Below, piece by piece: positions 128 through 48,816 of a DNA stretch of 64,000 nucleotides. The stretch lies in assembly GCA_041687495.1 (NCBI GenBank), contig JAWLBR010000001.1, forward strand, positions 12,014-76,013. The letters are read 5' to 3'. A model generated the notes under the pieces. The model saw only the letters and a list, made by a program, of their open reading frames with translations, did not search any database and was not told the DNA's origin. This DNA is from Limnochordia bacterium (GTDB taxonomy: Bacteria; Bacillota; Limnochordia; DTU087; JAAYGB01). Each line of letters begins with the position of its first letter. The stretch's first letter is position 1. Made by a program: the position numbers and the translations under genes.

Positions 128-700
128 TCATACAGACAGGCAAACACCAGTCTCAGGTCTACCAATCACCTGCGCTCCACCTAAACTACCCGCCGCAACC
201 GCTGACGCTTCTGCAGTCTTTACGGCCGCGGCTACATCACTAAGGCTGCCTTCCAGGACAAAAAAGCAACGCCCACCCAAGCTAAACCCCCAGCGCAGGT
301 TCCGAAGTACCACCCCTGCTGCCTTAAGCGCTCTGTCGGCAGCGGCGAAGCCTGAAGCAATAGTCAAAGTCTCTACGATCCCTAAAGCCGATTCGTTACT
401 CCCTTTTGCAAAGCGTCCTGCCATTCCCGCCAGGAGCTCGGGGTGGACTCTTCCTAAGACAAGGTGGTCGTATATTGCAGCCGGCTCACACGCAAGAGCG
501 GCTGCGACGGCCTCGTGGACCGCTGCCACTTGTCCCGTAAACAGTGCGGTGAACTTACCCGGACAGACCAGCTCACTTCTCACCACTACTACCTCAGCCG
601 CCTTTGTGGCCGAATCTAGAGCGGACAACCCAGCGGCAGCTCCGCGCATTTCAATCATTCCAAGAGCTTGAATCTCTGATTCCACTGTCCCCTCCTCCAA
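128..700 (-). CDS. BMC-T shell protein, PduT-like tandem BMC-domain protein with Fe-S cysteine motif
   Basis: Two Pfam00936-like BMC domains in ~190 aa (ALGMIEMRGAAAG...; ALGIVETLTIASGFAAADRALKAAGV). Conserved LVCPGKF motif matches the PduT Cys38 4Fe-4S ligand context (PduT TICPGKF). It is the last gene of the BMC operon and its 5' end overlaps the PduS-like gene. Confidence 0.8.
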   Translation of the reverse strand: MEEGTVESEIQALGMIEMRGAAAGLSALDSATKAAEVVVVRSELVCPGKFTALFTGQVAAVHEAVAAALACEPAAIYDHLVLGRVHPELLAGMAGRFAKGSNESALGIVETLTIASGFAAADRALKAAGVVLRNLRWGFSLGGRCFFVLEGSLSDVAAAVKTAEASAVAAGSLGGAQVIGRPETGVCLSV

Positions 701-2033
701 TCTCGATGAAGGTGTCTGTGATTCTCAGGACTCTGCCGGCAATGCTGGCATGCACCAGTGCCCCTAGACTGTTGGCTCGCGGTTCAGCTACTGTTTGCCC
801 CGCCCGCGCACTGTCTCCCACCCCGATACAAGGTTGAGCTGGAGTCCCGATATGCTGCTTCAAGGGTATGCGAACAACAGACACCTCCATTGGCTGAGAT
901 GCCCATGGTGCCGGCTGTGAGTATCTGGCCAAGTCCAGACGCTCCAGTAGTCGGCTGGTGGGGATCTGTCGACCCACCCGCTCCGGCCTGGGCTGAGTGG
1001 GACTAAGGCGATGGGGATTTACGGCCCCTTGAACGATCAGCTCCGCCTTTAGCGCTTGGTACATTCTGCGTGGCGACAGTCCGAGGGGACATGCATACAG
1101 ATCACAAACTCCGCACTCGCAGCACAGGAATGCTTGCGTAATAGCGTCGATATCCTGCCCCAACTGGTGGTTCACAGCGTTCAGTACCTGGCTAGGTTCA
1201 ATTGAGTGTCCCAGAAGCCGACGAGGGCAAAGGTCGGTACAGATCCGGCACTGACAGCACGCGGACTGTGCCTGCCGAAGGATAGCCGAAAGAGGCGTCT
1301 CTGCCTGGCGCACCAATGGATGGTCAGCCGGCAGAACGATGATTCCTTTAGTTGTCTTTGACACTCCACCCGAGTGGTCAAAAAAATCTTGCTGAACTAG
1401 GGTTCCGGTGAGGGGGCCGCCGCTGACCACTCGGTAATGCTCGACGTTAGGTCCGCCGGCCACCGAGAGCAACTGGTCTATGGATGTGCCGACAGGAGCC
1501 CGGACGGTGAGAGGCTGTTTCACGGCACCGGCGACGGTCAGGTAAGTATGAGTGACGGGGTGGCTGTGCAGCGCCCCGGTGATGTTAAGTACCGTCTCTA
1601 CATTCAAAACGACTGCTCCCACAGCCAATGGGATGCCCCCTTCGGGGACTACCTTACCGGTTACCTGATAGACTAGAGCCTGCTCATCGCCGGCAGGGTA
1701 GTAATCGGGGAGGGTAAACAGTGAGAGGCGGTGGTCCTTGAGTACAGCCTTCTTAACACTGGCGACAGCGTCGGTCTGCTTCGCTTTTAGGGCAACTACT
1801 CCCTGCTTGGCACTCACTGCTGTAACCACAGCGCCAAGACCAGCCACCAAAGCGTCTGCCTCTCTCTCAGCCAACTGTTTGTCAACCTGGAGTAGCGGTT
1901 CACACTCGGCCCCATTGACGATTACGATCTCTGCTGTACTGCGCAGTTTGACATGGGTGGGAAAGCCCGCGCCTCCGGCTCCCACAACTCCGGCTGCGTA
2001 CACCAACTGGCTGAGCTGAGTAGTCTCCATCAC
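651..2033 (-). CDS. PduS-like RnfC/NuoF-family Fe-S flavoprotein (BMC-associated NADH-dependent oxidoreductase)
   Basis: N-terminal VVGAGGAGFPTHVKL NADH/FMN-binding motif and two 4Fe-4S motifs (CCQCRICTDLCP; CCECGVCDLYACP). There is a C-terminal RnfC_N-like barrel segment (RIPLKQHIGTPAQPCIGVGD). Length ~460 aa matches PduS. It is immediately followed downstream by a PduT-like gene, as in pdu operons. Confidence 0.75.
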   Translation of the reverse strand: MMETTQLSQLVYAAGVVGAGGAGFPTHVKLRSTAEIVIVNGAECEPLLQVDKQLAEREADALVAGLGAVVTAVSAKQGVVALKAKQTDAVASVKKAVLKDHRLSLFTLPDYYPAGDEQALVYQVTGKVVPEGGIPLAVGAVVLNVETVLNITGALHSHPVTHTYLTVAGAVKQPLTVRAPVGTSIDQLLSVAGGPNVEHYRVVSGGPLTGTLVQQDFFDHSGGVSKTTKGIIVLPADHPLVRQAETPLSAILRQAQSACCQCRICTDLCPRRLLGHSIEPSQVLNAVNHQLGQDIDAITQAFLCCECGVCDLYACPLGLSPRRMYQALKAELIVQGAVNPHRLSPTQPRPERVGRQIPTSRLLERLDLARYSQPAPWASQPMEVSVVRIPLKQHIGTPAQPCIGVGDSARAGQTVAEPRANSLGALVHASIAGRVLRITDTFIEIGGGDSGIRDSSSWND

Positions 2034-2035
2034 GG

Positions 2036-2692
2036 TTAGTCCCTTCCTAAAATCCTGGCTTTGGCTCCACAGCTGATCCCTGCGGCATTGGCATCATCGG
2101 TATCCAAATGCATCTGCAACCGAAATTTCGGACTGACTCGCACTTGGACATTTCTGAAGACAAGCGCCTTCTCCCCTGTAACCTCGACGCTAACTAAGTC
2201 GTTATCCGATACAGCAAATCTCCTGGCATCATCCGGATTCATATGGATATGCCGATTCGCTACGATGGCAGTCTCATCTAGCACCAAGGTGCCGGCTGGG
2301 CCGATCAGCGTAATCGATGCGGCTCCTACCAGATCTCCACTTTTGCGTACAGGAGCGTCTATGCCCAGATATATCGCGTCGGTTCTAGCCAGTTCCACTT
2401 GGGTTCGGCTCCGGATGGGGCCGAGAATCCTGACTTTCTCCACCGCCCGCATTTTCGGTCCAGTTACTGTGACAACTTCCCTAGCCGCGAACTCTCCTTC
2501 TTGGTACAAATCCCGTAGGTTGGTCAGCTGATGCCCTGCCCCATATAGGACATCCAGATCCTTCTGTGACACATGAATATGGCGCACGGAAATACCCACC
2601 GGAACAACCATTGAGTCCTCAGGTACCCGCTGTTGTTGTAGTACTCCCATAACTTCCTTCGTAATGCGCTCCACAAGAGCCCTCTGGTCCAC
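2036..2692 (-). CDS. pduL: PduL-type phosphotransacylase (phosphate acyltransferase) with N-terminal amphipathic helix
   Basis: ~218 aa with duplicated PduL/EutD-type PF06130 repeats (GISVRHIHV..., VANRHIHMNPDDA). N-terminal ALVERITKEVMGVLQQQ resembles the known PduL encapsulation peptide. Confidence 0.8.
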   Translation of the reverse strand: MDQRALVERITKEVMGVLQQQRVPEDSMVVPVGISVRHIHVSQKDLDVLYGAGHQLTNLRDLYQEGEFAAREVVTVTGPKMRAVEKVRILGPIRSRTQVELARTDAIYLGIDAPVRKSGDLVGAASITLIGPAGTLVLDETAIVANRHIHMNPDDARRFAVSDNDLVSVEVTGEKALVFRNVQVRVSPKFRLQMHLDTDDANAAGISCGAKARILGRD

Positions 2693-2718
2693 CGCTACCC
2701 CTTCCTTCTCCAGATACG

Positions 2719-2964
2719 TTATTCAACGACTCCCATGATCAGAGTTTTAAACGGTGCCCGCTCCAGACCAAAGATCGACTTCGCCGCTCCCGGCGGCCCA
2801 CCAGCCAGGACTCTGTCTCCGGGCCCAGCTCCCACATAGTCGATGGCGATCTCGTACTCTGTCCCATGCCCTGCCATAGGCTGAATCAGAAAAAGCCGCT
2901 TTCCTTCTAAGGATTTATGCTTTACAGTACACACCACCGGGCTAATCACTTTAGCTAAGTACAT
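2719..2964 (-). CDS. BMC-P vertex (pentamer) protein, EutN/PduN/CcmL family
   Basis: 81 aa; MYLAKVISPVVCTVKH...LFLIQPM...IAIDYVGAGPGDRVL matches the Pfam03319 pattern. Confidence 0.75.
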   Translation of the reverse strand: MYLAKVISPVVCTVKHKSLEGKRLFLIQPMAGHGTEYEIAIDYVGAGPGDRVLAGGPPGAAKSIFGLERAPFKTLIMGVVE

Positions 2965-3292
2965 TGCTGGTTCCGTCCTCTCCGTTGTTCCCGGCTGTCG
3001 AGAGCAGGCTCAGCTGCTCAACGCTGACGCGATCAACGAGACCCACGATACTGGCATCTACTGGCGTATGATCCCCGGCAAAAGCCACCGCTGCCTCACC
3101 GCTGAACACAACCAGAACTACGTCGCCTTCTCCTGCCTGGGATGTGGCGTCAGCGGCAATATAAGGGCTTCCTCTCTCCTGCAGCTTGGCGTTCAGCGGC
3201 TGCACCGCCATAAATTTCATCCGCTCCAGGTCTGGGTCTCGCAATGAACAAACCACCCTGCCGATCACTCTTCCGAACCGCACGGGCGCCAC
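2951..3292 (-). CDS. BMC-P vertex protein paralog (EutN/CcmL family) with C-terminal tail
   Basis: RFGRVIGRVVCSLRDPDLERMKFMAVQPL...AADATSQAGEGDVVLV fits the EutN/CcmL fold signature. It has an extra ~25-aa C-terminal tail and short overlaps with both neighbouring BMC-P genes. Confidence 0.65.
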   Translation of the reverse strand: MAPVRFGRVIGRVVCSLRDPDLERMKFMAVQPLNAKLQERGSPYIAADATSQAGEGDVVLVVFSGEAAVAFAGDHTPVDASIVGLVDRVSVEQLSLLSTAGNNGEDGTSNVLS

Positions 3293-3615
3293 TTCCCTTC
3301 CTGCCGCCGCGAATAGACCTCAGTTGTGCCAAGATGTACAGCATCAATAATTCCAACGACGGCTGCATCTACCGGAGAGTGACTGAGTTTCGCAGCCTGG
3401 CGAGCCGAACTGCCACTGACCGTCATGACAATGTCGCCAACGCCCGCACCAACTGTATCCACCGCTACAATGCAACTACCCGCAGGCTCGCCAGAAGCGA
3501 TCTGAAGCGGCTGCACCACCTGTAACTTAAATCCGACCAGTTTGGGATCCTTCTGTGTAGCAACTACAGTGCCAACTACCCGTGCCATCTGCATTGTTTT
3601 TCCTGCCTTTCGCAA
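3265..3615 (-). CDS. BMC-P vertex protein paralog (EutN/CcmL family)
   Basis: MQMARVVGTVVATQKDPKLVGFKLQVVQPL...IVAVDTVGAGVGDIVM. The true start is probably the internal Met near 3594. Confidence 0.7.
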   Translation of the reverse strand: MRKAGKTMQMARVVGTVVATQKDPKLVGFKLQVVQPLQIASGEPAGSCIVAVDTVGAGVGDIVMTVSGSSARQAAKLSHSPVDAAVVGIIDAVHLGTTEVYSRRQEGKWRPCGSEE

Positions 3616-3646
3616 AAAGGTCAGCCACAGCCACCCGTCTCGCTAT

Positions 3647-4237
3647 CTATCCGGGGAATTGCGCCAGAAGCGCTGGATGTGGCGCCGGCAGCACCACAGC
3701 GGTCACCAAATCAGCTGGGGCAATCTGTGTCTCACCGCTTTCCACCCCAGCCGTTACTGCAGAAACGGTCCCCGCCATCACTACAAAGGACTTGCCTCCC
3801 ATTCCCCGGGTAAGCCGAACTTCCAAAAGCTCTACCTGTGCTGCTTTCACCGCGGCGTCAGCTCCAGTGATGGCTGCCGCTGCCCGCAGTGTTTCGATGA
3901 CGCCTACAGCGCTGCCAAGGCTGGTGGTGTGAGGCTCCAGCAGAGCATCGACAACCGCTTCAGCGATGTTGGCCAACACGCCCTGGGACAGTACATGCCC
4001 ACCACCGACAGCCACCGCCCGGTTCATAGCCGCCTGAACCGCTGCCACCCGGCCCGAAATGATGACAAAAAACCGACCGGGGCAAATTGGACTGGCCTGA
4101 ACCACCCTTACCTCAGCGGACTTGGCTGCAGCATCGACGCAGATATACCCCCACGGGACACTGTCACACTCCATCAAACCGACCGCGTTCCCGTGATTGC
4201 TCCGGCCTTTTCCATGAGGGCCCTCAGGATGCGGCAT
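3647..4237 (-). CDS. BMC-T shell protein, PduT-like tandem BMC-domain protein with Fe-S cysteine motif
   Basis: Two BMC domains (VGLMECDSV...; SLGSAVGVIETLRAAAAITGADAAVKAAQVEL) and an ICPGRFFVII motif analogous to the PduT Cys ligand. The N-terminal ~20 aa are uncertain. Confidence 0.7.
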   Translation of the reverse strand: MPHPEGPHGKGRSNHGNAVGLMECDSVPWGYICVDAAAKSAEVRVVQASPICPGRFFVIISGRVAAVQAAMNRAVAVGGGHVLSQGVLANIAEAVVDALLEPHTTSLGSAVGVIETLRAAAAITGADAAVKAAQVELLEVRLTRGMGGKSFVVMAGTVSAVTAGVESGETQIAPADLVTAVVLPAPHPALLAQFPG

Positions 4238-5453
4238 CGCTACCTAACCCCTTCACCACAAGATTGTAAGTATCCCGGGCGATGACAAGCTCTTCGTTGG
4301 TGGGGATGACCCACACTTCGGCCTTCGCCTCAGGGGGAGATATTCTTCTCTCTGGGTGGCCATCGGCGTTGCGGGCACTGTCCACCCATATGCCCATGAA
4401 TTCTAATCCGCTGAGAATCTTTTCTCTTACCTGCGGCGCCCGCTCTCCCACGCCACCGGAGACGACAACTGCATCCACGCCGCCCATGGCTGCTGCATAT
4501 GCCCCGACATACTTGCGGCACCGGTAAACAAAAGCGTCGATGGCCAGCTGGGCCCTGCCATTGCCAGCAGCGGCTTCTGCAAAAACCTCCCTTAAGTCGC
4601 TGCTCACACCCGATATCCCCTGCCATCCGCTGGTCTTGTTTAGCATCTGATCCATCTGGTCTGGACTCAGACCTTCCTTTCGCATTAGGTAGGTGATTAC
4701 CAGCGGGTCAATATCGCCGCACCGAGTAGATTGAATTAGTCCCTCGGTAGGAGTGAGGCCGGTACTGACGTCAACGGAACGGCCCCGGTCAAATGCACAG
4801 GCAGTCGTTCCGCTGCCCAGCATCAAGTTGACAATCTTCAAATCTTCCAGGGGCCTTTTCATCAGTTGAGCTACCCGTTCGGTCATATATCGGAAAGTGA
4901 TCCCGTGAAAACCGTACCGCCGAACTCGATACTTCTCGTAGAATTCATAGGGGATGGCATAAATATAAGCTTCCGGCGGAACTGTCTGATGGAGGCTAGA
5001 ATCAAAGACTGCCGCCATAGGCACATCCGGCATCAGCTCTTGACAGGCTCTAATTCCTTGCACATTGGGCGGGTTGTGCAGGGGAGCTAAATCGTAGTAG
5101 TCTTCTAAAACTTTCATTACCTGAGGCGTAATCGGCACCGAACCAATACAGCGTTCGCCTCCATGGACCACTCTGTGGCCTACAGCATCAATATCACTTT
5201 TTTCCTTCACCGCGCCGACTTTCGGGTCAAGGAGAGTAGAGAGGGCCACCTCAATAGCTTCTTGATGACTCAGCGCCGCAAAGGTTCGAGTCAGCGGAGG
5301 CTTGCCAACCGCTAGATGCGTTAGACGGGCATCGCTCCGTCCAACTCGTTCCACTTGCCCCTTCGCCAAGACTATTTCGCTTGGCATTTCCATGAGTTGG
5401 TACTTAACTGAAGATCCTCCGCAGTTTAGCACTAAGACTCTCACCCGAAACAC
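4224..5453 (-). CDS. ackA: Acetate/propionate kinase
   Basis: 409 aa; N-terminal VLVLNCGGSSVKYQL is the acetokinase signature. The full-length ASKHA acetate kinase family match sits inside the BMC operon, as in many metabolosome loci. Confidence 0.85.
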   Translation of the reverse strand: MFRVRVLVLNCGGSSVKYQLMEMPSEIVLAKGQVERVGRSDARLTHLAVGKPPLTRTFAALSHQEAIEVALSTLLDPKVGAVKEKSDIDAVGHRVVHGGERCIGSVPITPQVMKVLEDYYDLAPLHNPPNVQGIRACQELMPDVPMAAVFDSSLHQTVPPEAYIYAIPYEFYEKYRVRRYGFHGITFRYMTERVAQLMKRPLEDLKIVNLMLGSGTTACAFDRGRSVDVSTGLTPTEGLIQSTRCGDIDPLVITYLMRKEGLSPDQMDQMLNKTSGWQGISGVSSDLREVFAEAAAGNGRAQLAIDAFVYRCRKYVGAYAAAMGGVDAVVVSGGVGERAPQVREKILSGLEFMGIWVDSARNADGHPERRISPPEAKAEVWVIPTNEELVIARDTYNLVVKGLGSDAAS

Positions 5454-6055
5454 CCCTCCGTAGTCGTACAGGCAGAACTATGGCCGCCAAACACAAACAC
5501 TCCATCCCAAGCCTGAGGACTGGGGTTGGCCAATATCCTGCTGTCGACAAGCAGCTCTCCGCTTAACGTTTTCAGCACAGCGTCCACTGCAGCTGTTACC
5601 GCGCCTATGGTTCCGCCAAGATACAGGCATCCCCGGCCAGAGATGCCGCCGGCCAAACGAATTGTGTACAACTCCACCTGGGCTGCCTTGACTGCCGTAT
5701 CAGCTGCCAGCACCGCCGAACTGGCACTATAGGTCTCAAGGATCCCCAGCGCCTGTAGCTGGCCCACCGGGGTAGTCCCCTTTACTGCACTGATAAGGTT
5801 GGGATGGGGATTCCCCAGGCAAAAGCTGTCAATGTGATTCCACTCCGGCCGAGCTGCAGCATACTCCAAACCCGCCCGAACCGCGGCAACCTCCCCGGAC
5901 ACCGCAGCTAACAGCTTCCCAGGGCAGACCACCCGAACCAACACTAGCTCGACAGGATAGGCCTTGATTAACCAGTCCACTGCCTTGAGCCCCAATCCGA
6001 TGCTCTTAAACTCCATCATTGCCAAGGCGCTACTGTCCAGCATATTGCTCACCAT
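5441..6055 (-). CDS. BMC-T shell protein, PduT-like tandem BMC-domain protein with Fe-S cysteine motif
   Basis: Two BMC domains (MMEFKSIGLGLKAVDWL...; ALGILETYSASSAVLAADTAVKAAQVEL) and a VVCPGKLLAAV motif. It lies directly downstream of the second PduS-like gene. Confidence 0.75.
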   Translation of the reverse strand: MVSNMLDSSALAMMEFKSIGLGLKAVDWLIKAYPVELVLVRVVCPGKLLAAVSGEVAAVRAGLEYAAARPEWNHIDSFCLGNPHPNLISAVKGTTPVGQLQALGILETYSASSAVLAADTAVKAAQVELYTIRLAGGISGRGCLYLGGTIGAVTAAVDAVLKTLSGELLVDSRILANPSPQAWDGVFVFGGHSSACTTTEGCFG

Positions 6056-7385
6056 CGCTCATAATAGTTACCTCACCATGCTCAATCTTGCTGACCGTCC
6101 CAGAAATACTGCTGTGAACGCTTACACTGAGCGAAGAGCCAGAGCCGACTGCGATCTCCTGTCCTTGGGACACCTGGTCGCCGACATTTACGCTCAGCTT
6201 TCCAGGGGCGCCGACGTGCTGCAACACAGGAATCGTCACACTTCCAGGAGCAACGGACTCTTCCCAGGGATGCGCCTTCTTCTCCCACTGGAACAACCCT
6301 AACCGGAGCACCAATCTCTGCGACGGCAGCAGATTCCCCTGACCATCCCACTCACTGTTCTCTTCGAGACAAAACTCTGATTTTGGGGCAGAGACCTCCC
6401 GCAGACGTCGTTTCAGCCATCGGTTAATTTGTCTGGGGGAAAGTCCCATGGGACAGACCACATCGCAGACTCCGCACTCGCTGCACAGTACTGCGGCTTT
6501 CGCACTCTCGAGTTCCAGAGTTCCTTCGGTAGATGCACTGCGCATGGCCAGATGCGGCACCAACGGATGGCCGAGTAAGTGCCTCGGGCATAGGTCCGTG
6601 CACAGAGTGCAGGAACAACACACCTGGTTGGCGAGTCGGACCATGTGCTCAACCGATAGGTGTGCTCGACCGTGCAGATGGTCCACGGGATGATTGGTAG
6701 GAACGACAATGAGACCCTTCGTTGTCTTAGTCACCGGCTGGTCCAAGTCTGCCACAAGCCTTCCCATCATCGGTCCGCCCTCGATTATCTGGTAACTGGC
6801 AGGCGACGGCTGTGCTAAGGCAACAACCTGTGACACTGACATGCCAATCGGGGTTTTAATGGTAAGGGCCCGCTTCACCGCTCCAGTTACGGTAACCCAG
6901 GAATGGGTTACCGGAAAGCCCGCAGCCGCTTCAGCAATGTTGTACAATGTCTCTACGTTAAGAACTACAGCCCCGATCCGAAGAGGGATATCTCCCGGCG
7001 GGATCGTTCGGCCCAAAACATGCCGACACAGAACATGTTCGTCCCCCATGGGGTAGACATCGGGAAGAAGCGCTATCTCCAACCAGGGATACGAAACAGA
7101 CAAATCCGCAAACATCTCCACTTGGTCTACATGCTTAGCCTTGACAGCTAAGTAGGCTCTCTTGGCCTTAACCGCTCTCGAAACCAGTTCTAGCCCTTGT
7201 AAGATAGTCTCCGGGTAGTGAGCCAACAGAACTTGGTCTACCTGGAGAAGGGGTTCACATTCAGCTGCATTGACAATGACTGTCTCAATCCCTTCACCTA
7301 GCTTGCGATAGGTAGGAAACCCAGCACCACCTGCTCCGACAACTCCTCCACGGCGGACAGCCTGAATCAACTGCTTGAGCTGCAT
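6030..7385 (-). CDS. PduS-like RnfC/NuoF-family Fe-S flavoprotein, second paralog
   Basis: VVGAGGAGFPTYRKL plus two 4Fe-4S motifs (CCSCTLCTDLCP; CSECGVCDVVCP). There is a C-terminal RnfC_N-like barrel (VTIPVLQHVGAPGKLSVNVGD). ~451 aa. Confidence 0.75.
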   Translation of the reverse strand: MQLKQLIQAVRRGGVVGAGGAGFPTYRKLGEGIETVIVNAAECEPLLQVDQVLLAHYPETILQGLELVSRAVKAKRAYLAVKAKHVDQVEMFADLSVSYPWLEIALLPDVYPMGDEHVLCRHVLGRTIPPGDIPLRIGAVVLNVETLYNIAEAAAGFPVTHSWVTVTGAVKRALTIKTPIGMSVSQVVALAQPSPASYQIIEGGPMMGRLVADLDQPVTKTTKGLIVVPTNHPVDHLHGRAHLSVEHMVRLANQVCCSCTLCTDLCPRHLLGHPLVPHLAMRSASTEGTLELESAKAAVLCSECGVCDVVCPMGLSPRQINRWLKRRLREVSAPKSEFCLEENSEWDGQGNLLPSQRLVLRLGLFQWEKKAHPWEESVAPGSVTIPVLQHVGAPGKLSVNVGDQVSQGQEIAVGSGSSLSVSVHSSISGTVSKIEHGEVTIMSDGEQYAGQ

Positions 7386-7428
7386 CTGGAACCTCCTTCC
7401 CAGACCAAGTCCAGTGCTGCGGCATCAT

Positions 7429-8868
7429 CTAGATTGACAGTGCCCCTTGCACAGTTACGTTTCTCTGCCGGGTGAAAGTCCGTGGCGTACAGATCCCTTC
7501 GCCAGTAGGACTTGCAATGGTATGTCCGAAGGTGCCGTTGCCCTCCACACCCAGGGACGCCGTTGCCGGACCATTGGCCACCACAATGGTTGTGTTCATC
7601 TTGCGGGCAAAGGCACTGATGCGCTCTTCCATGGACGAGTGGATGATGGCCGTATGACCAAACCCCTGCTCTGCTTCATAAGCCCGCTCCAGTCCCTCAG
7701 ACCAATTAGCTACTGACACAATCGGTAATACTGGCAGCATCTGCTCGATTTTCACCAATGGATGGTCAAAGGGCACCTGTAAAATAGCTCCCTCGGTACC
7801 AGGTGGGGCAGCGATTCCCGCCCGCCGAAGAATATCCGCCCCATCTTGGCCGACGCAGTCGCCTACCACATGGTTATCCTTGATAATGAGGTTACAGACC
7901 TGCCTCTTCTCCTCATCACTCTTCAGTAGATACGCATGATGCCGCTGCATTTCTTCAATTAGAGCCTCCGCCACAGAGCTCACTACAAATACAACCTTCT
8001 CCGAAATGCAGAGAATGTTGTTGTCAAACCATGAGCTACTGATGATGTCCCTGGCTGCCCGATGAATGTCAGCCGTCTCGTCGACAACCACAGGTGGATT
8101 AGCAGCTCCAGCCGCAACCGCCTTTTTCCCGCAGCTGAGCGCCGTACGAACAACTGCCGGACCTCCTGCGGCGGTAACCATCGCAACCAGGGGATGAGTG
8201 ATCACCTGGTTTACTACATCCAAAGTAGCCTGGTTAACGGCTACCAGACAGTTCTTCGGCCCACCGGCGGCGATAATGGCCCTGTTGAGAGTACGGATGG
8301 CTTCACGGGTGCATTCCTGAGCCCGAGGATGTGGGCAGAAAAACACAGTATTGCCCCCAGCCAGCATGATGATGGCGTGGTTGATAACAAAAGGAGTGGG
8401 ATGAGTAGTGGGTGTAATCGATGCGATTAGGCCGTAAGGACCCCGCTGCGTCAATGTGATACCATAATCACCTGCTTGAACAGCTCGAGGAAGGTCCTCA
8501 GTACCTGGAGAGAGTTTCGCTGCGTTAATGTTCTTCTGTACCTTGTGTTCATATCTGCCTAACCTAGTCTCCTCGATGGTCAGCTGGGCAAATCGTTGCG
8601 CATGCTCAATTCCCGCTTTGCGCACAGCGGAAATGACGGCCTCTCGCTGTGCCAAAGACATCTGCATTAACTCTTGTTGAGCTGCCTTGGCGGCTTCAGC
8701 CGCTGCGCCAACGGAGGTAAAGATCCCTGCTTCCTCGCTTGCACCGGGAGATTCTGTAGGTATTTTTGCTTCCGTGGTGAGGTTTCTCAAGACCTGGCTG
8801 ACTAACTCCGAAATCCTTTTCTCGTCTATCTGCATAGCAGGTACCTGCTGGGCTGCACACATCACCAA
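7429..8868 (-). CDS. CoA-acylating aldehyde dehydrogenase (PduP/EutE-like) with N-terminal encapsulation peptide
   Basis: ALDH-superfamily acylating subfamily hallmarks (GIFTSVGAAAEAAKAAQ..., catalytic Cys region ILCISEKVV, ...GEGICTPRTFTRQRN C-terminus). The N-terminal IDEKRISELVSQVLRNL amphipathic helix plus linker precedes the catalytic domain, as in PduP. The likely start is the Met at ~8835. Confidence 0.85.
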   Translation of the reverse strand: MVMCAAQQVPAMQIDEKRISELVSQVLRNLTTEAKIPTESPGASEEAGIFTSVGAAAEAAKAAQQELMQMSLAQREAVISAVRKAGIEHAQRFAQLTIEETRLGRYEHKVQKNINAAKLSPGTEDLPRAVQAGDYGITLTQRGPYGLIASITPTTHPTPFVINHAIIMLAGGNTVFFCPHPRAQECTREAIRTLNRAIIAAGGPKNCLVAVNQATLDVVNQVITHPLVAMVTAAGGPAVVRTALSCGKKAVAAGAANPPVVVDETADIHRAARDIISSSWFDNNILCISEKVVFVVSSVAEALIEEMQRHHAYLLKSDEEKRQVCNLIIKDNHVVGDCVGQDGADILRRAGIAAPPGTEGAILQVPFDHPLVKIEQMLPVLPIVSVANWSEGLERAYEAEQGFGHTAIIHSSMEERISAFARKMNTTIVVANGPATASLGVEGNGTFGHTIASPTGEGICTPRTFTRQRNVTVQGALSI

Positions 8869-8995
8869 GCCCGAATGTTATGCCTGGCTAGAGCCTGAAC
8901 CATGGCGTCAGCCCAGCAGTTTCAGGCCCCCTTTGCTGCGAACTAAGTAAGATGCGACCGAGACTATCTCAGCTGGAAGAAGCTGAAATAGCGAT

Positions 8996-9280
8996 TCACT
9001 CGCCACGGGGAACCAGGATTTTCTCCACGTCACTATGGGGCCGAGGGATAACATGGGCCGCTACCAGTTCAGCCACCCTGCCGGCAGCCTCGGCGCCAGC
9101 ATCCACAGCCGCCCTGATCGCTCCGACATCTCCTCGGACCATAACGGTGACCAAGCCCGACCCGATCTTCTCATAGCCCACCAGCTGAACATTGGCAGCC
9201 TTGACCATCACATCAGCAGCCTCAATGGCTCCGATTAAGCCCTTTGTCTCGATTAATCCCAACGCTTCGCCCATTTCCAC
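8996..9280 (-). CDS. BMC-H shell protein (PduA/PduJ-like hexamer)
   Basis: 94 aa; [58 protein letters not shown] is the canonical Pfam00936 sequence. Confidence 0.9.
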
Positions 9281-9361
9281 TACATCCTCTCTTCTGATAA
9301 TTTGGTGTAAAAAAATACTTGCTACTTGCCCGTAGACTTCGCCTAAGACTGGCGCTGCCCT

Positions 9362-9649
9362 TTATATCTCAAGGTTTTTGGCAAACAAGTTCGCCACTTG
9401 CCTGTCTGCCCGTGCGATAATCTTGGTGACGCAAGGCCGACCCATTCTGCCGGCACAATCTTCGGCAGCCTCCACCGCCGCCGTCACTGCCCCGACTTCT
9501 CCCGCTAACTTGATCACAAACTTACCGCTGCCTTTGGATGGTTCGAGACCCAATAGTTCAACTGCAGCAGTCTTAGCGGCGCTGTCGGCGCACGCATAGG
9601 CTGCAGCTAAGCCGGCCACTTCCAGCAGCCCTAGAGCTCTTCCTGCCAT
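9362..9649 (-). CDS. BMC-H shell protein, divergent paralog
   Basis: 95 aa; ALGLLEVAGLAAAYACADSAAKTAAVELLGLEPSKGSGKFVIKLAGEVGAVTAAVEAA has the BMC fold signature. It has non-canonical Cys residues and an SGKF motif. Confidence 0.8.
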   Translation of the reverse strand: MAGRALGLLEVAGLAAAYACADSAAKTAAVELLGLEPSKGSGKFVIKLAGEVGAVTAAVEAAEDCAGRMGRPCVTKIIARADRQVANLFAKNLEI

Positions 9650-9747
9650 CGCCTTTCACCCCTTTCACACCTAGCTATCAGCGTCAGAGCGGAAGCGAAA
9701 ATTAGCAGTTCCAATTCACTCCCGCCGCTGCGCTGCGTCCGGATGGG

Positions 9748-10554
9748 TTACTTGCCCGTTTGCTCGGACAGAACTTTCATGGTAACTTCAGTGATGATTC
9801 GCACCAGGTCACTTTCACTAACTCCCGAATCAGCCGGAACGCCAGGATGCTGTTCTGCCTGACTCTCCTCCACGTAGACACTCCCACCCTGGCAGGTAGC
9901 CGGATGCCGACCAACTACTCCCAACTTCCGCCGCACTTCCATCAACTTCTCCACATCAGGCGAACTGATAGCTTTCTCGTTGCCCAGCTGCCTAGCCAGA
10001 AGGCTGATCTGAGCGCCTAGGTCCAGAGTCTCCATCTTAAAATAGGCGTTGTACACATCAGTGCCAACCGTCAGTGCCCCGTGATTCTCCAGTAAGAACG
10101 CATCGTGGCACTGGAGATACTTGCTGACCGCTTGGGGGATCTCATCGGTTGATGGAGTTCCATACTCTGCCACCGGCACCCATCCAAGACTGATTACTAC
10201 CTCAGGCATGATTGGCTTCGTCAAAGGTATTCCCGCCACAGCAAAGGCAGTGGCATGGGGCGGATGGGCGTGGACCACCGACTTGACGTCATCGCGCTCT
10301 CGATACACCTGCAGGTGCATCTTCAGCTCTGATGAGGGTTTGAGCTTGCCGGACTTAACCGTCCCATCCATATCCACTTTGATAATCATGTCCGGAGTGA
10401 GAAAACCCTTGCTGACTCCAGTGGGAGTCGTTAATACTTCATCTGGACCCGTCCGAATAGTGATATTGCCGTCATTGGCAGCAACAAACCCCTTATTATA
10501 TATCCGTCGCCCCACCTCAATGATGTCTCTTTTTAGCTCGAATTCAGACGCCAT
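9748..10554 (-). CDS. Class II aldolase/adducin-family enzyme (fuculose/rhamnulose-1-P-aldolase-like) with C-terminal extension; BMC signature enzyme
   Basis: PF00596-like core with metal-binding His (VVHAHPPHA, ENHGALTVG). It is ~50 aa longer than stand-alone FucA/RhaD and ends in the amphipathic helix SDLVRIITEVTMKVLSEQ after a Gly/Pro/Ser-rich linker. It is the first large gene of the operon. Confidence 0.85.
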   Translation of the reverse strand: MASEFELKRDIIEVGRRIYNKGFVAANDGNITIRTGPDEVLTTPTGVSKGFLTPDMIIKVDMDGTVKSGKLKPSSELKMHLQVYRERDDVKSVVHAHPPHATAFAVAGIPLTKPIMPEVVISLGWVPVAEYGTPSTDEIPQAVSKYLQCHDAFLLENHGALTVGTDVYNAYFKMETLDLGAQISLLARQLGNEKAISSPDVEKLMEVRRKLGVVGRHPATCQGGSVYVEESQAEQHPGVPADSGVSESDLVRIITEVTMKVLSEQTGK

Positions 10555-10586
10555 GAACTAGCCCCTTTCTGTATATGCGGTAATCT

Positions 10587-10790
10587 TTATACTGTGATGG
10601 CCTTCCATTCACCCTGTCGAAAACGCCATTCGATCACCATAGCGCTGACCCATTGGTCTGCTGCACAGGCGATCCATGCTCCAATCAAGTCCCAAGAAAA
10701 AACAACGCCAAATAAGAAGGCGAAAAGCACCCGAAATCCCCAGATGCCAACATTTGTGACAACTCCAGTCCTCCATCCTTGCCTGTGCAA
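10587..10790 (-). CDS. Hypothetical small hydrophobic protein (possible spurious ORF in the BMC operon leader)
   Basis: 67-aa ORF with a hydrophobic stretch (VLFAFLFGVVFSWDLIGAWIACAA) that ends 33 nt before the aldolase start. No recognisable family. Confidence 0.2.
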   Translation of the reverse strand: MHRQGWRTGVVTNVGIWGFRVLFAFLFGVVFSWDLIGAWIACAADQWVSAMVIEWRFRQGEWKAITV

Positions 10791-10877
10791 GTTCTATCTT
10801 GCCATTACTTGATTCACCCACGGCAAGCTAACCCCTGCAAAGTATCCATTGGTATAAGTCATTTCAGCATCGGAGTC

Positions 10878-10923
10878 AAAGCAAAACTGCCAGCGGGCGC
10901 TCTGATCGGAGCGATGCTGGCAG
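10878..10923 (-). terminator. Putative rho-independent terminator downstream of the ferredoxin-like gene
   Basis: On the minus strand, CTGCCAGC...(inner CGCTC/GAGCG pairing)...GCTGGCAG is followed by TTTTGCTTTG. It separates the ferredoxin-like gene from the BMC operon promoter region. Confidence 0.45.
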
Positions 10924-11041
10924 TCTGATTAGACAATATTCTCGGCAAGCAGTCATGCTGCCTGCCGACGTGCATTTGGGGATTCAAGCTGATGCCCGAG
11001 GTGTTAGCTGGGGGGACAAAACATTACTCCAGTAATCGACC

Positions 11042-11830
11042 CTAAAAACCGGCGGCCCGCTTGCGCTCTTCTTTGATGCTGCCATCGATACCGATGGTAA
11101 ACTCATGAACAGGCAGCGTCTGGCCGGACAACTCCAGCGCCTGTTTCGCGATATATACCAATCCGGAGCAGCACGGAACCTCCATGTGCACGATGGTAAG
11201 TCGGCGCAGGTTGTTCCTCGCAATGATGTCAGCCAGCTTAGCAACGTACTCGCTGGCATCGTCCAGTTTGGGGCAACCTACTGCCACTGCCCGCCCACTG
11301 AGGAACTGCCGATGAAAATCACCGTAAGCAAAGGGAACGCAGTCGGCACACAGAAGGAGATCCGCCCCCTGGAAGTACGGGGCATTGGGAGACAGCAATG
11401 ACAGCTCCACTGGCCACTGTCTTAGTGCCGATGTCAGCTCTAGTGGCTCGGTGCTCTCCGTGGGATGGTGGTTTGCACTTGACTCCTTCTCAGTCTTTGG
11501 CGTTGCGGCAAAATGCATCATCCGGGCCCCGGGGCATCCGCTGTGCCCATGGTCACCGTGGGTTGACCCCTGTGGCTGTTGCGAAGACTGCCGACGAACA
11601 TGAGCCAATGCCGCTTCCTCGTCAAATTCAGGAGCTTCTCGCTTTTCAATAGTCAGGGCTCCCTGTGGGCAGTGGCCTAAACAGGCGCCAAGACCATCAC
11701 AAAAGTCATCCCTCATTACCCTAGCTTTGCCGTCAATAATCTGCAGTGCGCCTTCGGCGCAGGCAGGAACACACAGCCCACAGCCATTGCACTTCTCCTC
11801 ATCAATTACGATCATATCTCTCATTGGCAT
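11042..11830 (-). CDS. 4Fe-4S dicluster ferredoxin-domain protein with His-rich linker and Cys-rich C-terminal domain
   Basis: N-terminal CNGCGLCVPACAEGAL and CDGLGACLGHCPQGAL are two classical CxxCxxCxxxCP motifs. A His-rich low-complexity linker follows. The C-terminal domain carries CADCVPFAYGDFH and VPCCSG motifs and has no family I can name. Confidence 0.6.
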   Translation of the reverse strand: MPMRDMIVIDEEKCNGCGLCVPACAEGALQIIDGKARVMRDDFCDGLGACLGHCPQGALTIEKREAPEFDEEAALAHVRRQSSQQPQGSTHGDHGHSGCPGARMMHFAATPKTEKESSANHHPTESTEPLELTSALRQWPVELSLLSPNAPYFQGADLLLCADCVPFAYGDFHRQFLSGRAVAVGCPKLDDASEYVAKLADIIARNNLRRLTIVHMEVPCCSGLVYIAKQALELSGQTLPVHEFTIGIDGSIKEERKRAAGF

Positions 11831-11996
11831 AGTCTCTTACCTCCAAAGTCTATAGTGAGCCATCGGACCACCGCCGGGTCCTTTGACCTCAGCTTTTTAG
11901 TAACTGACTATATTGTAGCGCATCGGCGAACCCATGCCCTTGACATAAGTCAAAAGGTCGCGAAAAAAGCCCGGCAAACGGTGCCGAGCTTCTCCG

Positions 11997-13868
11997 TCAT
12001 TGATCTACCGGGTCTTCCTGCTCGTCCTGACCCGCCTCTTGAGGTGGAGAGAAATATGCCTCAAGGAATTTGCGAGCCATAGGTGCAGCCGCTGAGGCTC
12101 CTCCCCCACCGTGCTCAACAAAAGCTACGACCACAACTTCTGGCTTGTCTACCGGGGCATATCCCGCAAACCAGCCATGGCCGTCTGCTCCAGTGACCTG
12201 TGCCGTTCCGGTCTTACCGGCAACAGGAGTATCAAACCCACGGAACACGTTGTGGGCTGTACCTCGCCGATTCTTCACTACAGCCACTAAGCCCTTCTCG
12301 ATGGCTGACCAGTGCGCTGCCGCCATGCTGATTTTTCGAGCCACGATGGGTTCTAACTCGTTAACGATACCCCCCGTGGGGTCCATCACTGCTCTGACCA
12401 AGCGGGGAGCATACTGAGTGCCTTTGGTAGCTAGCGTGCTGTACATCTGTGCTACCTGCAGCGGAGTGACCAGAAGATAGCCTTGACCGATGGAAAAATC
12501 CATTGTTTCCGCTTCGTACCAATTCCTTTCCCAGATGGGTTTCTTAGCAAAGACCTCCTTCTTCCAGTCCGGATCAGGAACTAGTCCTGCCTTATCACCG
12601 GGATACAGATCGATGCCGGTGGACGACCCAAAACCAAACATCCTGGAATACTTGGCAATGGACTCCACCCCGAGGCGGAAACTCATTTCCCAAAAAAAGT
12701 CGTTGCTGGAACGCTCCAATGCCGTCGCCAGATCGATCCAACCATGAGGAGGAAGTGGCGGATACTGATTCAAAATCCAATCCTTCTTGCCATACTTACT
12801 CTTACCCGTCGCATAGTACAACTCGTCAGGATTGAGTTTCCCTAAATCAAGTGCAGCAACAGCGGTGACCGGTTTAAATGCCGAACCTGGAGGGTACATC
12901 CCTTGAGTAGCCCGGTTCAACATCGGTAGAGATGGGTCCCGCTGCAGTTGCGCAAAGTTACGCTCAGGAACATTGGGGAGCAACAGATTTGGATCAAACC
13001 CCGGGCGACTGGCTATTGCCAGTATCTCCCCAGTCCACGGGTCCATAGCAACAATAACTCCCGCCTTAGCATCGGGTCCGTTTGCTTTGCCTTGGAGTTC
13101 GGCTAACTGCGCATCGATAGTCTCTTCAGCGACCCGCTGCAGCCTGCTGTCAATGGATAGAATAATGTTGTTTCCAGGAACGGGGTCCTGCGATTCAATT
13201 ACCCTTTGCGGTCTGCCCACGGCATCCACTTCCCGCAGGATCCACCCGTTTTCACCCTTCAGATCTCGCTCATACGCTCGCTCCAGGCCGCTCTTACCAA
13301 TCAAGTCGGTCCCATAGTACCCACTGAGTGTGCTGAGTTCGTCGCTGTTGATCATGCCAAGATAGCCTACCAAGTGGCTGGCGGTCTGGCCTTGTGGATA
13401 TGTTCTGCTGACCACACTCTCCAAATTGACCCCAGGCAGATCCTGCTGCTTCTCCGCAAGGCGGATTATCGCCTCGGGGCTTAGGTTGAGCACCACGGGC
13501 ACCGGTTCAAAGGACCGATATTCCTTGGACTGAAGCCGCTGGACAATCTCGTCAGCGTTCGCTCCGGTAATAGTTGCCAATGTACTGGCGACCTCGGTAA
13601 TCGGCTGGTCTAAGTGGTCCTTGATCACGGTCACCTGGTAGACGGCCTTATTGGTTGCCAGCTTCGTCCCGTTGCGATCCAAGATGTCACCCCGCGCGGG
13701 ACTGACCCTTTCCATTCGGCTTTTGTTGCCTTCGGCAAGGGCCGAATACCTGTCCCCCTGGATAATCTGCAGCTGCCACAATCGGGCCAAGAGGACGAAG
13801 AGGATCAACCATATCATCCAACCAAAGACCTTGGTTCGCTGGACCAAAGCTTTATCCTCTGTACTCAT
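11997..13868 (-). CDS. mrdA: Penicillin-binding protein 2 (class B PBP, elongation-type transpeptidase)
   Basis: N-terminal membrane anchor plus RLWQLQIIQGDRY dimerisation-domain start. Transpeptidase SxxK motif (GSAFKPVTAV), SxN and KTG(T) motifs (KTGTAQ). 623 aa. Confidence 0.85.
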   Translation of the reverse strand: MSTEDKALVQRTKVFGWMIWLILFVLLARLWQLQIIQGDRYSALAEGNKSRMERVSPARGDILDRNGTKLATNKAVYQVTVIKDHLDQPITEVASTLATITGANADEIVQRLQSKEYRSFEPVPVVLNLSPEAIIRLAEKQQDLPGVNLESVVSRTYPQGQTASHLVGYLGMINSDELSTLSGYYGTDLIGKSGLERAYERDLKGENGWILREVDAVGRPQRVIESQDPVPGNNIILSIDSRLQRVAEETIDAQLAELQGKANGPDAKAGVIVAMDPWTGEILAIASRPGFDPNLLLPNVPERNFAQLQRDPSLPMLNRATQGMYPPGSAFKPVTAVAALDLGKLNPDELYYATGKSKYGKKDWILNQYPPLPPHGWIDLATALERSSNDFFWEMSFRLGVESIAKYSRMFGFGSSTGIDLYPGDKAGLVPDPDWKKEVFAKKPIWERNWYEAETMDFSIGQGYLLVTPLQVAQMYSTLATKGTQYAPRLVRAVMDPTGGIVNELEPIVARKISMAAAHWSAIEKGLVAVVKNRRGTAHNVFRGFDTPVAGKTGTAQVTGADGHGWFAGYAPVDKPEVVVVAFVEHGGGGASAAAPMARKFLEAYFSPPQEAGQDEQEDPVDQ

Positions 13869-26982: not shown

Positions 26983-28938
26983 ATGTCCATCCCTGTTGTG
27001 GTTGTATTATCCCCGGTTACGCGAAAATTATGGGATAATCCCTGCATGGACGCCTGCGTGGCATACACCCATGGGTTTCCGGTGATTCTATCTTGTAGTA
27101 CCGTGATCGCCGATTCTCCGGAGGTAGTTGCCACTATGAAAAAGATCGTCATTGTCGGCGGTGGATATGCTGGGGTGGAAGCAGGACTAACCCTGCACCG
27201 TCGACTCAAGCGCCGGGAACAAGTAGAGATAACCTTAGTCAATAGGAACCCCTTCCACACGCTTCTCACCGAACTGCACGAGGTGGCGGGAACCCGTGTG
27301 GGAGAAAGGTCGGTAATGGTATCTCTTCGGCACATCTTTCAGTACACGAAGGTAAAGGTAGTTCAGGACTCTATTACGGAATTTGACTTCGACAACAAGG
27401 CTGTACGCTCAGAAAACAGGGAGTACCAATACGATTATCTGATCCTGGCTTTGGGAAGCGAACCAACCTTTTACGGAATTGAAGGCATGGAAGATCATGC
27501 CTTTACCCTGTGGTCTTTGGAAGATGCCCAGCGCATCCGCAGTCACATCACGGAAATGGTAGCGAAAGCGGCCCGCTCCACTGACCCCTTCGAGCGACAG
27601 GCCTACTTGACGTTTGTTGTGGGCGGCGGCGGCTTTACCGGTGTTGAGATGGTGGGCGAACTTATTCGCTGGAAACGGCAGCTGGCAAAGGAATACAACA
27701 TCCCAGTTAGCGAAATCCGCCTCATCTTGGTGGAGGCGATGGACCGAATCCTTCCCACCCTTGATGAAGCTTTAGCCCAGCGGGTAGAGAACTACCTGGA
27801 CCATAACCATGTTCAAGTCTTGAACGGTCAGCCCATCAAGCGGGTAACCCCAGATGGCATCTTACTGGGGCAAAACCTAGATATTCCCACTAAGACCCTA
27901 ATCTGGGCCGGCGGAGTCGTGGCCAACCGCACGATTCAAGACTCGGGCCTAAAGCAAAGTAGGCGGGGACGCCTTGCCGTCAATAATTATCTTCAAGTAG
28001 ATGGTCACCCCGACGTCCTGGCTGCAGGAGACAACTGCGGCCTAACCTGGGAGGAGGACGGCCGCCCGGTAGAAATGCCTGCCTTGGTAGAGTCTGCTCT
28101 AGCCACTGGTAAGACCGCTGCCCTAAATGTCATTGCCGCTTTGCGAGGAACCGAAATGAAGCGTTCCCGCCCCAAGTACCACGGCTTGATGGTGTCCGTG
28201 GGACGGTGGTGGGGAGTAGCCAACATCATGGAAGTATCTCTGGTGGGGATTCTGGCTATTGTCATGAAGCACATGGTGAACTTACACTACCTGTTCGGAA
28301 TCGGTGGCTTTGAGCTAATCATCCGCTACATTCGCCACGAATTTCTCGACATGAAAGCACCCTTTCAGAACATTGCCGAGGTGCAGTTTACCAGACAAAG
28401 ACCGCTGTTTTTCCTGGTGCCTTTGCGACTGTACTTGGGTTACATGTGGCTGGAAGAAGGCGTTAAGAAGGTGATGGAGGGCTGGTGGAACAGCGTGGCC
28501 TTAGGTAAGGCAGCGCTTTCTGATCCGTCACTTACCGGCGCCAGTCAAGCTATCCCAGTGGATGGAGTAGCTGGAGCAACCTTGATGGAGCTGGTCGGAG
28601 AGCACACTCCGGGATGGTACGCTTGGATCGTTGAGAACCTAATCTACCCCAACGCCCTTTTGTTCCAACGGCTGGTGGTGTTAACCGAAATCGGGTTAGG
28701 GCTTGCATTTCTGTTGGGGTTTATGACGGTGATCGCTGCCGCCGTTTCCATCGGGATGAACATCAACTTTCTCCTATCAACGGGTCTATATGACTTTTGG
28801 TATATCTTTGCTTCAATCCCGATGTTTGCCGGCGCCGGTGATGTGTTTGGACTGGACTACTTCCTCATGCCATACCTGATGCGGCAGTGGCGGTACCTTG
28901 TCAGAAACAAGCGCATCAAGCCGATTCTCCTCCGATAA
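26983..28938 (+). CDS. ndh: Type II NADH dehydrogenase (NDH-2) fused to a C-terminal polytopic membrane domain
   Basis: MKKIVIVGGGYAGVEAG is the first dinucleotide-binding motif (probable true start ~27136). A second GG motif is VVGGGGFTGVEMVGE. The ~230-aa C-terminal extension has several TM helices (LRLYLGYMWLEEGVKK..., DoxX-like). Confidence 0.75.
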   Translation: MSIPVVVVLSPVTRKLWDNPCMDACVAYTHGFPVILSCSTVIADSPEVVATMKKIVIVGGGYAGVEAGLTLHRRLKRREQVEITLVNRNPFHTLLTELHEVAGTRVGERSVMVSLRHIFQYTKVKVVQDSITEFDFDNKAVRSENREYQYDYLILALGSEPTFYGIEGMEDHAFTLWSLEDAQRIRSHITEMVAKAARSTDPFERQAYLTFVVGGGGFTGVEMVGELIRWKRQLAKEYNIPVSEIRLILVEAMDRILPTLDEALAQRVENYLDHNHVQVLNGQPIKRVTPDGILLGQNLDIPTKTLIWAGGVVANRTIQDSGLKQSRRGRLAVNNYLQVDGHPDVLAAGDNCGLTWEEDGRPVEMPALVESALATGKTAALNVIAALRGTEMKRSRPKYHGLMVSVGRWWGVANIMEVSLVGILAIVMKHMVNLHYLFGIGGFELIIRYIRHEFLDMKAPFQNIAEVQFTRQRPLFFLVPLRLYLGYMWLEEGVKKVMEGWWNSVALGKAALSDPSLTGASQAIPVDGVAGATLMELVGEHTPGWYAWIVENLIYPNALLFQRLVVLTEIGLGLAFLLGFMTVIAAAVSIGMNINFLLSTGLYDFWYIFASIPMFAGAGDVFGLDYFLMPYLMRQWRYLVRNKRIKPILLR

Positions 28939-32696: not shown

Positions 32697-32708
32697 GTAC
32701 GCCTGTGA

Positions 32709-33794: not shown

Positions 33795-33895
33795 TCCTTT
33801 GGCTTGACTTTTCTTCTCAAAGCCGGAATTACGTCAAAATCTCCTCGCATAGCCACTAGCCTCTTGAGCACCTTTGTAGCTTTGTAGCCTTTCAC

Positions 33896-48459: not shown

Positions 48460-48816
48460 ATGATATCAACAGGAGTAGTAGATCAGCGGGGAGGGGTTTT
48501 TGTGAGAGCACTAAACAAGCGCAAATGGCGAGGGCACGCAGAGGCCGCGGCCGGAATTCCCATCGAGGCAAAGCGGGATGGTAAAGGCGATTTTTGTTTC
48601 CTGGACGTGATCGCTAGCAGTGTCGACCAAGCTGTATTGATCGTGTTAGCTTCAGGTGCGGGCTACAACGCGGTAGCTGGAGTCATCGCCGACGTCTTCT
48701 CTGACCACCTGACCTTGGTAAGCGGCAACGTCATTACTTCCATTCCGTACAAGTACATTGCGGCATTGTCCCGCCTGGCGGGAGGAGGGCCGGTACCTCC
48801 TGTGACAGCAAGGTAG
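48460..48816 (+). CDS. Small uncharacterised protein, paralog A
   Basis: The core VLIVLASGAGYNAVAGVIADVFSDHLTLVSGNVITSIPYKYIAALSRLAGGGPVPP is ~60% identical over ~55 aa to 49448..49774. Confidence 0.5.
   Translation: MISTGVVDQRGGVFVRALNKRKWRGHAEAAAGIPIEAKRDGKGDFCFLDVIASSVDQAVLIVLASGAGYNAVAGVIADVFSDHLTLVSGNVITSIPYKYIAALSRLAGGGPVPPVTAR

Follow-up and report, generated by a model that had tools for sequence, protein, structure and literature searches.

A predicted sugar-aldehyde-degrading microcompartment operon without an alcohol dehydrogenase carries a doubled pair of putative NADH-oxidase and Fe-S shell protein genes

How might a bacterial microcompartment (BMC) regenerate the NAD+ that its aldehyde dehydrogenase consumes if its operon encodes no alcohol dehydrogenase? 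This question is raised by the low-coordinate end of a 64,000-nucleotide stretch from a Limnochordia bacterium (contig JAWLBR010000001.1; the whole stretch analysed is called the window), where positions 128-10554 on the minus strand form one tightly packed 14-gene metabolosome operon. It is probably a sugar-aldehyde-degrading BMC operon; it lacks an alcohol dehydrogenase and carries, in doubled form, a published pair of genes for an NADH oxidase and an Fe-S shell protein. We favour, with a probability of roughly 0.8, the reading that it specifies an aldolase metabolosome that would recycle NAD+ through two electron-export modules instead of an alcohol dehydrogenase. This reading draws on the domain and motif identity of both NADH-oxidase-like proteins, the PduT-like Cys of three shell trimers, encapsulation-like extensions, the lack of an alcohol dehydrogenase and a conserved gene order. 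Gene content, motifs, fold and synteny support it; cofactor binding, electron direction, acceptor and substrate are predicted.

Sutter et al. (2024, PNAS; PMC11626177) introduced the name MNdh for PduS homologs and BMC-T^SE for the Cys-bearing trimers that partner them, a pair known as PduS/PduT in Salmonella and Citrobacter Pdu, and proposed that NAD+ is regenerated in the lumen while electrons leave through the shell cluster to a non-specific small ferredoxin or flavodoxin; the same idea had been raised earlier for GRM loci (PMC4207490, PMC6325248). MNdh occurs in 2,172 of >7,000 BMC loci, BMC-T^SE immediately adjoins it in 97% of MNdh loci, and CP(G/S)K is universally conserved in BMC-T encoded beside it; 1,725 loci carry both an alcohol dehydrogenase and the MNdh module, and 361 carry the module and an aldehyde dehydrogenase (AldDH) without an alcohol dehydrogenase (PMC11626177). 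For the Clostridium botulinum complex, NADH oxidation assays, electron paramagnetic resonance (EPR), voltammetry and footprinting support export (PMC11626177).

The window operon shares with that module a four-domain, circularly permuted RnfC-like flavo-Fe-S enzyme, an adjoining PduT-type trimer with a presumptive CPGK pore Cys and an acylating AldDH alongside, and, like the 361 published loci, it has no alcohol dehydrogenase. An earlier reading of this DNA from its letters (the sequence-only reading) had arrived at electron export; every sequence-level defining feature tested fits, and by homology the mechanism is likely right, but it is not novel, being the model published in 2024 together with its distribution and the loci that lack alcohol dehydrogenase. 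The locus is an additional MNdh/BMC-T^SE metabolosome of that kind and conceptually adds little. It differs from the published module, and is unusual, mainly in having a second, diverged module and a third Cys-bearing BMC-T without a partner gene.

The PduS-like and PduT-like proteins

Both PduS-like proteins contain the four domains that define MNdh (PF01512, PF10531, PF13534, PF13375), in the order Complex1_51K, SLBB, Fer4_17 and C-terminal RnfC_N (Pfam E 4e-39 and 4e-43), with Complex1_51K at residues 10-152 and RnfC_N at about 371-444 in each copy. For copy 1, the cryo-EM chain 7zc6_C of RnfC is a match (E 1e-45), and residues 372-434 at the C-terminus of copy 1 align with RnfC residues 22-83, in the N-terminal barrel. 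As judged from these alignments, the RnfC N-terminal domain is permuted to the C-terminus, and this circular permutation is the hallmark of the PduS/MNdh family. The FMN/NADH motif (GAGGAGFP, AECEP) and two four-Cys motifs (eight Fe-S Cys), which the sequence-only reading had already recognised, occur in copies 1 and 2 as well as in every ortholog. The spacing between the last two Cys of the second motif differs by one residue between the copies: residues 301-312 of copy 1 read CxxCxxCxxxC, one residue short of the family-typical CxxCxxCxxxxC found in copy 2 and most of 84 homologs.

Each MNdh gene is directly followed by a tandem-BMC gene, as published for the module (6030-7385 by 5441-6055; 651-2033 by 128-700), and the AldDH gene (7429-8868) lies in the same locus. 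Each overlaps the start of its tandem-BMC gene, which is consistent with translational coupling.

All three BMC-T proteins comprise two BMC stretches (tandem, non-permuted PF00936 in Pfam), and their closest PDB matches are PduT (3pac/3n79) or its Desulfitobacterium homolog 3nwg (E 1e-25 to 1e-31), in keeping with the single-layer fold of PduT. In HMMER alignments their motifs VCPGKL, ICPGRF and VCPGKF fall on PduT ICPGKF, placing the Cys at the position of PduT C38, and aligning 87 BMC-T sequences with MAFFT gives the same result. The sequence-only reading had held that all three retain this Cys, with the proteins at the coordinates found here, and the alignments bear it out. The motif is CPGK in 5441-6055 and 128-700 and CPGR in 3647-4237, the latter within the range C-P/S/A-G-K/R/S for PduT (PMC6325248). 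An AlphaFold2 model of the 3647-4237 protein (pLDDT 91.2) has PduT 3n79 as its best Foldseek match (TM 0.85/0.91, root-mean-square deviation 1.9 A) and holds the Cys at the tip of the hairpin formed by strands 43-52 and 55-63. By analogy with the solved PduT trimer, we infer that the Cys lines the three-fold pore.

Two of the three BMC-T genes adjoin an MNdh gene. The remaining one, 3647-4237, sits between the acetate kinase and BMC-P genes, likewise in all orthologous loci, and its Cys is kept in 6/6 orthologs as CPG[R/S/Y], whereas the second, non-adjacent BMC-T of two Elusimicrobia loci (L023, L072) lacks the Cys (SKGK). A Cys-containing C-terminal tail of the first BMC-T (5441-6055) was dropped from consideration, as it is not conserved among orthologs.

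Gene content, operon end and the doubled module

Family assignments by Pfam and NCBIfam profile searches give the following operon genes:

9748..10554 (-): class II aldolase, the signature enzyme (Pfam Aldolase_II E 4.6e-50; NCBIfam FucA/OtnC-like, under equivalog cut-offs)
9362..9649 (-): BMC-H shell hexamer protein 1 (Pfam BMC E 2.3e-18)
8996..9280 (-): BMC-H shell hexamer protein 2 (Pfam BMC E 2.9e-30)
7429..8868 (-): CoA-acylating aldehyde dehydrogenase, putative NADH producer (NCBIfam PRK15398 537 bits, cut-off 403; Pfam Aldedh)
6030..7385 (-): MNdh/PduS-like NADH dehydrogenase copy 1 (four Pfam domains in MNdh order; RnfC structure match; motifs)
5441..6055 (-): BMC-T^SE (PduT-type) copy 1, VCPGKL (PduT/3nwg E 4e-31 to 3e-25; start overlaps MNdh1 stop)
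4224..5453 (-): acetate/acyl-phosphate kinase (Pfam Acetate_kinase E 6.6e-127)
3647..4237 (-): PduT-type BMC-T copy 2, ICPGRF, no adjoining MNdh gene (3nwg/PduT E 3e-31 to 1e-25)
3265..3615 (-): BMC-P pentamer vertex protein a (Pfam EutN_CcmL E 5.8e-32)
2951..3292 (-): BMC-P pentamer vertex protein b (Pfam EutN_CcmL E 7.9e-21)
2719..2964 (-): BMC-P pentamer vertex protein c (Pfam EutN_CcmL E 5.8e-19)
2036..2692 (-): PduL-type phosphotransacylase, PTAC (Pfam PTAC E 5e-73; NCBIfam PRK15070 252 bits, cut-off 209)
651..2033 (-): MNdh/PduS-like NADH dehydrogenase copy 2 (Pfam domains; motifs; orthologs in sampled loci L001-L005 and L081)
128..700 (-): BMC-T^SE (PduT-type) copy 3, VCPGKF, last operon gene (Citrobacter PduT 3pac E 1e-30; overlaps MNdh2 stop)

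Neither these 14 genes nor the long open reading frames (ORFs) scanned in the rest of the window (from 17 kb onward those of 150 aa or more, before that the main ones) matched an Fe-ADH or Zn-ADH family, so that the absence of an alcohol dehydrogenase claimed in the sequence-only reading holds for the operon and extends to the scanned ORFs around it. Because the 14 genes are contiguous, lying no more than 127 nt apart and in several cases overlapping at start and stop, there is no space among them for an additional gene. The window itself ends 127 nt beyond the third BMC-T. In three related loci (L001, L003 and L081) the operon likewise ends at the last BMC-T with no alcohol dehydrogenase after it; the next genes encode an Rsm22-like methyltransferase and ABC transporters in L001 and L003, and a 71-aa ORF and phosphoglucomutase in the closer relative L081. 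Further, the residual window sequence translates as '...DRLPVDLA', resembling the 'ELPTDLR' and 'ELPAELR' N-termini of the L001 and L003 Rsm22-like genes. Taken together, the shared operon end in relatives and this Rsm22-like remnant indicate that the operon very probably ends at 128.

Three of the enzymes carry encapsulation-peptide-like helices: the aldolase at its C-terminus (SESDLVRIITEVTMKVLSEQ), and the AldDH (IDEKRISELVSQVLRNL) and PTAC (DQRALVERITKEVMGVL) at their N-termini. Such terminal amphipathic extensions are typical of encapsulation peptides. The acetate kinase has no encapsulation peptide at either terminus and is probably cytosolic, performing the ATP-yielding last step. For BMC-T copy 3, a GTG at 685 that follows a putative ribosome-binding site (GGAGGAGG) appears a more likely start than the TTG at 700. 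The numbers of promoter-like and terminator-like sites match chance expectation (7 against 6.1 expected, and 10 against 9.3), and the window contains no Rfam family at gathering threshold and no tRNA gene; the limits of the transcription unit are therefore drawn from gene spacing and synteny.

The two modules are far from identical. MNdh1 and MNdh2 share 41.5% identity and the three BMC-T 33-38% pairwise, and a neighbour-joining tree of 84 MNdh sequences, in which deep branches are poorly resolved, places the two copies in separate clades, each with its own orthologs. A recent tandem duplication was rejected on this identity and on the tree, where the two clades are not sisters; the modules instead appear to have diverged anciently. 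Their arrangement belongs to an order shared by a clade: aldolase, BMC-H, AldDH, MNdh1, BMC-T1, acetate kinase (AckA), BMC-T2, three BMC-P, PTAC, MNdh2, BMC-T3. It is kept in full in L003 and, from the BMC-H gene on, in L005, whose contig begins there; both are anaerobic-digester metagenome-assembled genomes (MAGs) labelled Bacillota. In the truncated L001, L002 and L081 it is kept as far as the contigs reach. The closest relatives of the BMC genes carry the Bacillota label, the best match among the genome contigs searched having 57% identity.

We compared the operon with 105 MNdh loci from genomes and metagenomes, 80 of them genome-derived. None of the other ~100 fetched MNdh loci has two MNdh genes, the doubled form being confined to the small Bacillota-like clade of the window, and a metagenome scan with MNdh copy 1 returned no sequence more than 45% identical to it and added no doubled locus. 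In the literature consulted, the PDU-like locus of C. kluyveri, with four (PMC4207490), is the one locus described as having multiple PduS copies, so the doubling is unusual but not unprecedented. Between the window and L003, MNdh and BMC-T are 44-57% identical and AldDH, aldolase, PTAC and AckA 66-71%; on these figures the redox module seems to evolve faster than the core enzymes. Among the sampled loci is also one on a Candidatus Heimdallarchaeota chromosome (L010; CP070695.1, about 6500-13000) with PTAC, BMC-P, AldDH, MNdh, BMC-H and BMC-T genes, whose MNdh is 43% identical to window copy 2; it fits a 2025 preprint on Asgard archaea microcompartments (PMC12747264).

Proposed electron export and its alternatives

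By the families of its enzymes, the aldolase would split a ketose-1-phosphate inside the shell into dihydroxyacetone phosphate and an aldehyde, most likely lactaldehyde; the acylating AldDH would convert the aldehyde to acyl-CoA with reduction of NAD+, PduL would form the acyl-phosphate, and the kinase would yield ATP. By homology to the C. botulinum complex, each of the two MNdh proteins would bind, from the lumen, the PduT-type trimer co-translated with it and pass electrons from NADH via FMN, two [4Fe-4S] clusters and the pore [4Fe-4S] cluster to a cytosolic acceptor. With NAD+ regenerated by MNdh and no alcohol dehydrogenase involved, all aldehyde would be available to the ATP-yielding branch. 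The second module and the third Cys-bearing trimer would most simply be extra or specialised electron conduits.

The sequence-only reading had put forward a ferredoxin-like gene just upstream (11042-11830, minus strand) as the acceptor, a proposal that did not survive comparison. Its product carries a 2x[4Fe-4S] ferredoxin domain at the N-terminus, followed by a His-rich linker; the C-terminal 127 aa contain Cys (CADC, CPK, PCCSG) and have no Pfam match. The gene lies 487 nt upstream of the operon beside a PBP2 gene, none of the 80 genome-derived MNdh loci encodes a homolog of its product, and in the syntenic L003 the upstream neighbour of the operon is MurB instead. We therefore rejected a dedicated role: nothing ties the gene to the system, and its product may be one of many non-specific acceptors.

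Several points weigh against electron export as the means of recycling here. The transfer of electrons from NADH to a low-potential ferredoxin would be thermodynamically uphill. The proteins of this operon are known from sequence, and the mechanism would carry over to them by homology. The aldolase scores below all NCBIfam equivalog cut-offs. The BMC-T at 3647-4237 does not lie beside MNdh and lacks the Lys of CP(G/S)K; retention of its Cys is weak evidence taken alone, because 29% of all columns are invariant among its six orthologs. The absence of an alcohol dehydrogenase covers the operon and the 64-kb window, and a satellite enzyme elsewhere in the genome is possible.

Given a view of 64 kb of the genome, both recycling systems could run, an encapsulated alcohol, lactaldehyde or malate/lactate-type dehydrogenase from a satellite locus dominating and MNdh/BMC-T^SE being auxiliary, as in Salmonella Pdu. 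The 1,725 published loci with both systems would be precedents, and satellite loci hold most of the MNdh modules of PVM, which shows that BMC parts are frequently scattered (PMC11626177). We nevertheless hold such an arrangement to be unlikely: no dehydrogenase of that kind was found in the operon, in the window or after the operon in three relatives, and two conserved MNdh modules argue for the importance of the export route in this clade. It is quite unlikely, on the operon's enzymology, that electrons flow inward or that the Cys pores are non-redox, serving Fe-S delivery or repair for lumenal MNdh or gated metabolite passage. The sole NAD-linked step makes NADH, the operon encodes no reductive or radical-SAM enzyme that would need imported electrons, and EPR and voltammetry on the homologous complex favour the direction from NADH to the shell (PMC11626177). 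What can be said for these roles is that Fe-S supply or inward transfer was considered earlier for PduT in GRM loci (PMC6325248), that the third BMC-T is not beside MNdh and that the residue after its CPG varies (R/S/Y); this orphan trimer especially might be no conduit.

Homology to PduS also brings in the role first proposed for the Salmonella protein, that of a corrin (cobalamin) reductase served by PduT, an original biochemical assignment cited in PMC11626177 and PMC4207490. For the present proteins that role is extremely improbable, since B12-dependent enzymes, adenosyltransferases and cobalamin genes are all missing from the 14 operon genes, the class II aldolase that serves as signature enzyme depends on a metal, and the published analysis disfavours a B12 role in types other than PDU and EUT (PMC11626177). 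A further thought, which we consider distinctly improbable, is that paired diverged modules and all-Fe-S shell trimers are not simple redundancy: the modules would be specialised for different cytosolic acceptors or redox potentials. In a bolder form, itself unlikely, one MNdh would be lumenal and the other cytosolic, giving an NADH-to-NAD+ relay across the shell that needs no acceptor of its own; in the published AlphaFold runs, about half of the solutions had MNdh on either face (PMC11626177). Under this scheme the orphan third trimer might serve as an open docking site for a soluble carrier.

If the published export model holds for this operon, all aldehyde would enter the ATP-yielding acyl-CoA branch and a protein shell would act as a redox-separating membrane. 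A lineage with two diverged modules, three Cys trimers and no operon alcohol dehydrogenase would be a natural test case, in which electron export should be essential, not auxiliary; it could help to identify the cytosolic acceptor and offers alternative parts for wiring engineered shells.

Compartment type and other observations

The gene families point to a metabolosome of the class II aldolase type, with the PVM, PVM-like and 'SPU-like' loci as its relatives. By analogy with PVM, the default candidate for the substrate of the pathway is lactaldehyde from fuculose- or rhamnulose-1-phosphate; the operon is not flanked by genes for a sugar isomerase or kinase. PVM and PVM-like loci (Erbilgin et al. 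2014, summarised in PMC4207490 and PMC8217296) resemble the operon in their enzymes, namely a class II aldolase as signature enzyme that bears a C-terminal extension, together with AldDH, PduL-type PTAC and acetate kinase, and in their triplet of BMC-P. The types differ from it in host, that of the window being neither a planctomycete nor a verrucomicrobium and having Bacillota-labelled digester MAGs as closest relatives, and PVM differs further in its lactate/malate-dehydrogenase-type NAD+ recycler, a family with no Pfam match among the 14 operon genes. MNdh is mostly in satellite loci in PVM and is doubled in the main locus here; PVM-like loci are listed with neither recycling system, unlike the window operon (PMC11626177).

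Latescibacteria have 'SPU-like' loci with a class II aldolase (Axen et al. 2014, PMC4207490), which contain the same AldDH, PduL, PduS/MNdh, BMC-T, aldolase and acetate kinase and likewise no alcohol dehydrogenase. We recovered this type twice among the sampled loci (L055, from KSB1, and L077), in the order DeoR, (FGGY kinase in L077), BMC-P, RpiB-like, MNdh, BMC-T, PTAC, AldDH, BMC-H, aldolase, AckA. Those loci have a single module, an RpiB-like isomerase and a DeoR regulator, whereas the window operon has no RpiB-like gene and adds the second module and third BMC-T. Classification as SPU proper was rejected, as there is no DERA (PF01791) or RpiB (PF02502) match among the 14 operon genes.

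Elsewhere in the window, two paralogous small ORFs (48460-48816 and 49448-49774, both plus strand; 46% identical over 69 aa), one with a borderline DUF2642 match (E 1e-4), occupy a 1.5-kb stretch otherwise without a long ORF. At 26983-28938 (plus strand), a 651-aa fusion of Pyr_redox_2 and a DoxD-like membrane domain is possibly a membrane-anchored NADH or sulfur oxidoreductase. Finally, 31134-38334 (minus strand) encodes two TolC-like outer-membrane efflux proteins, an AcrB-type pump and an HlyD-type adaptor, a set that implies a diderm envelope, although Bacillota is the label on the nearest relatives of the BMC genes.

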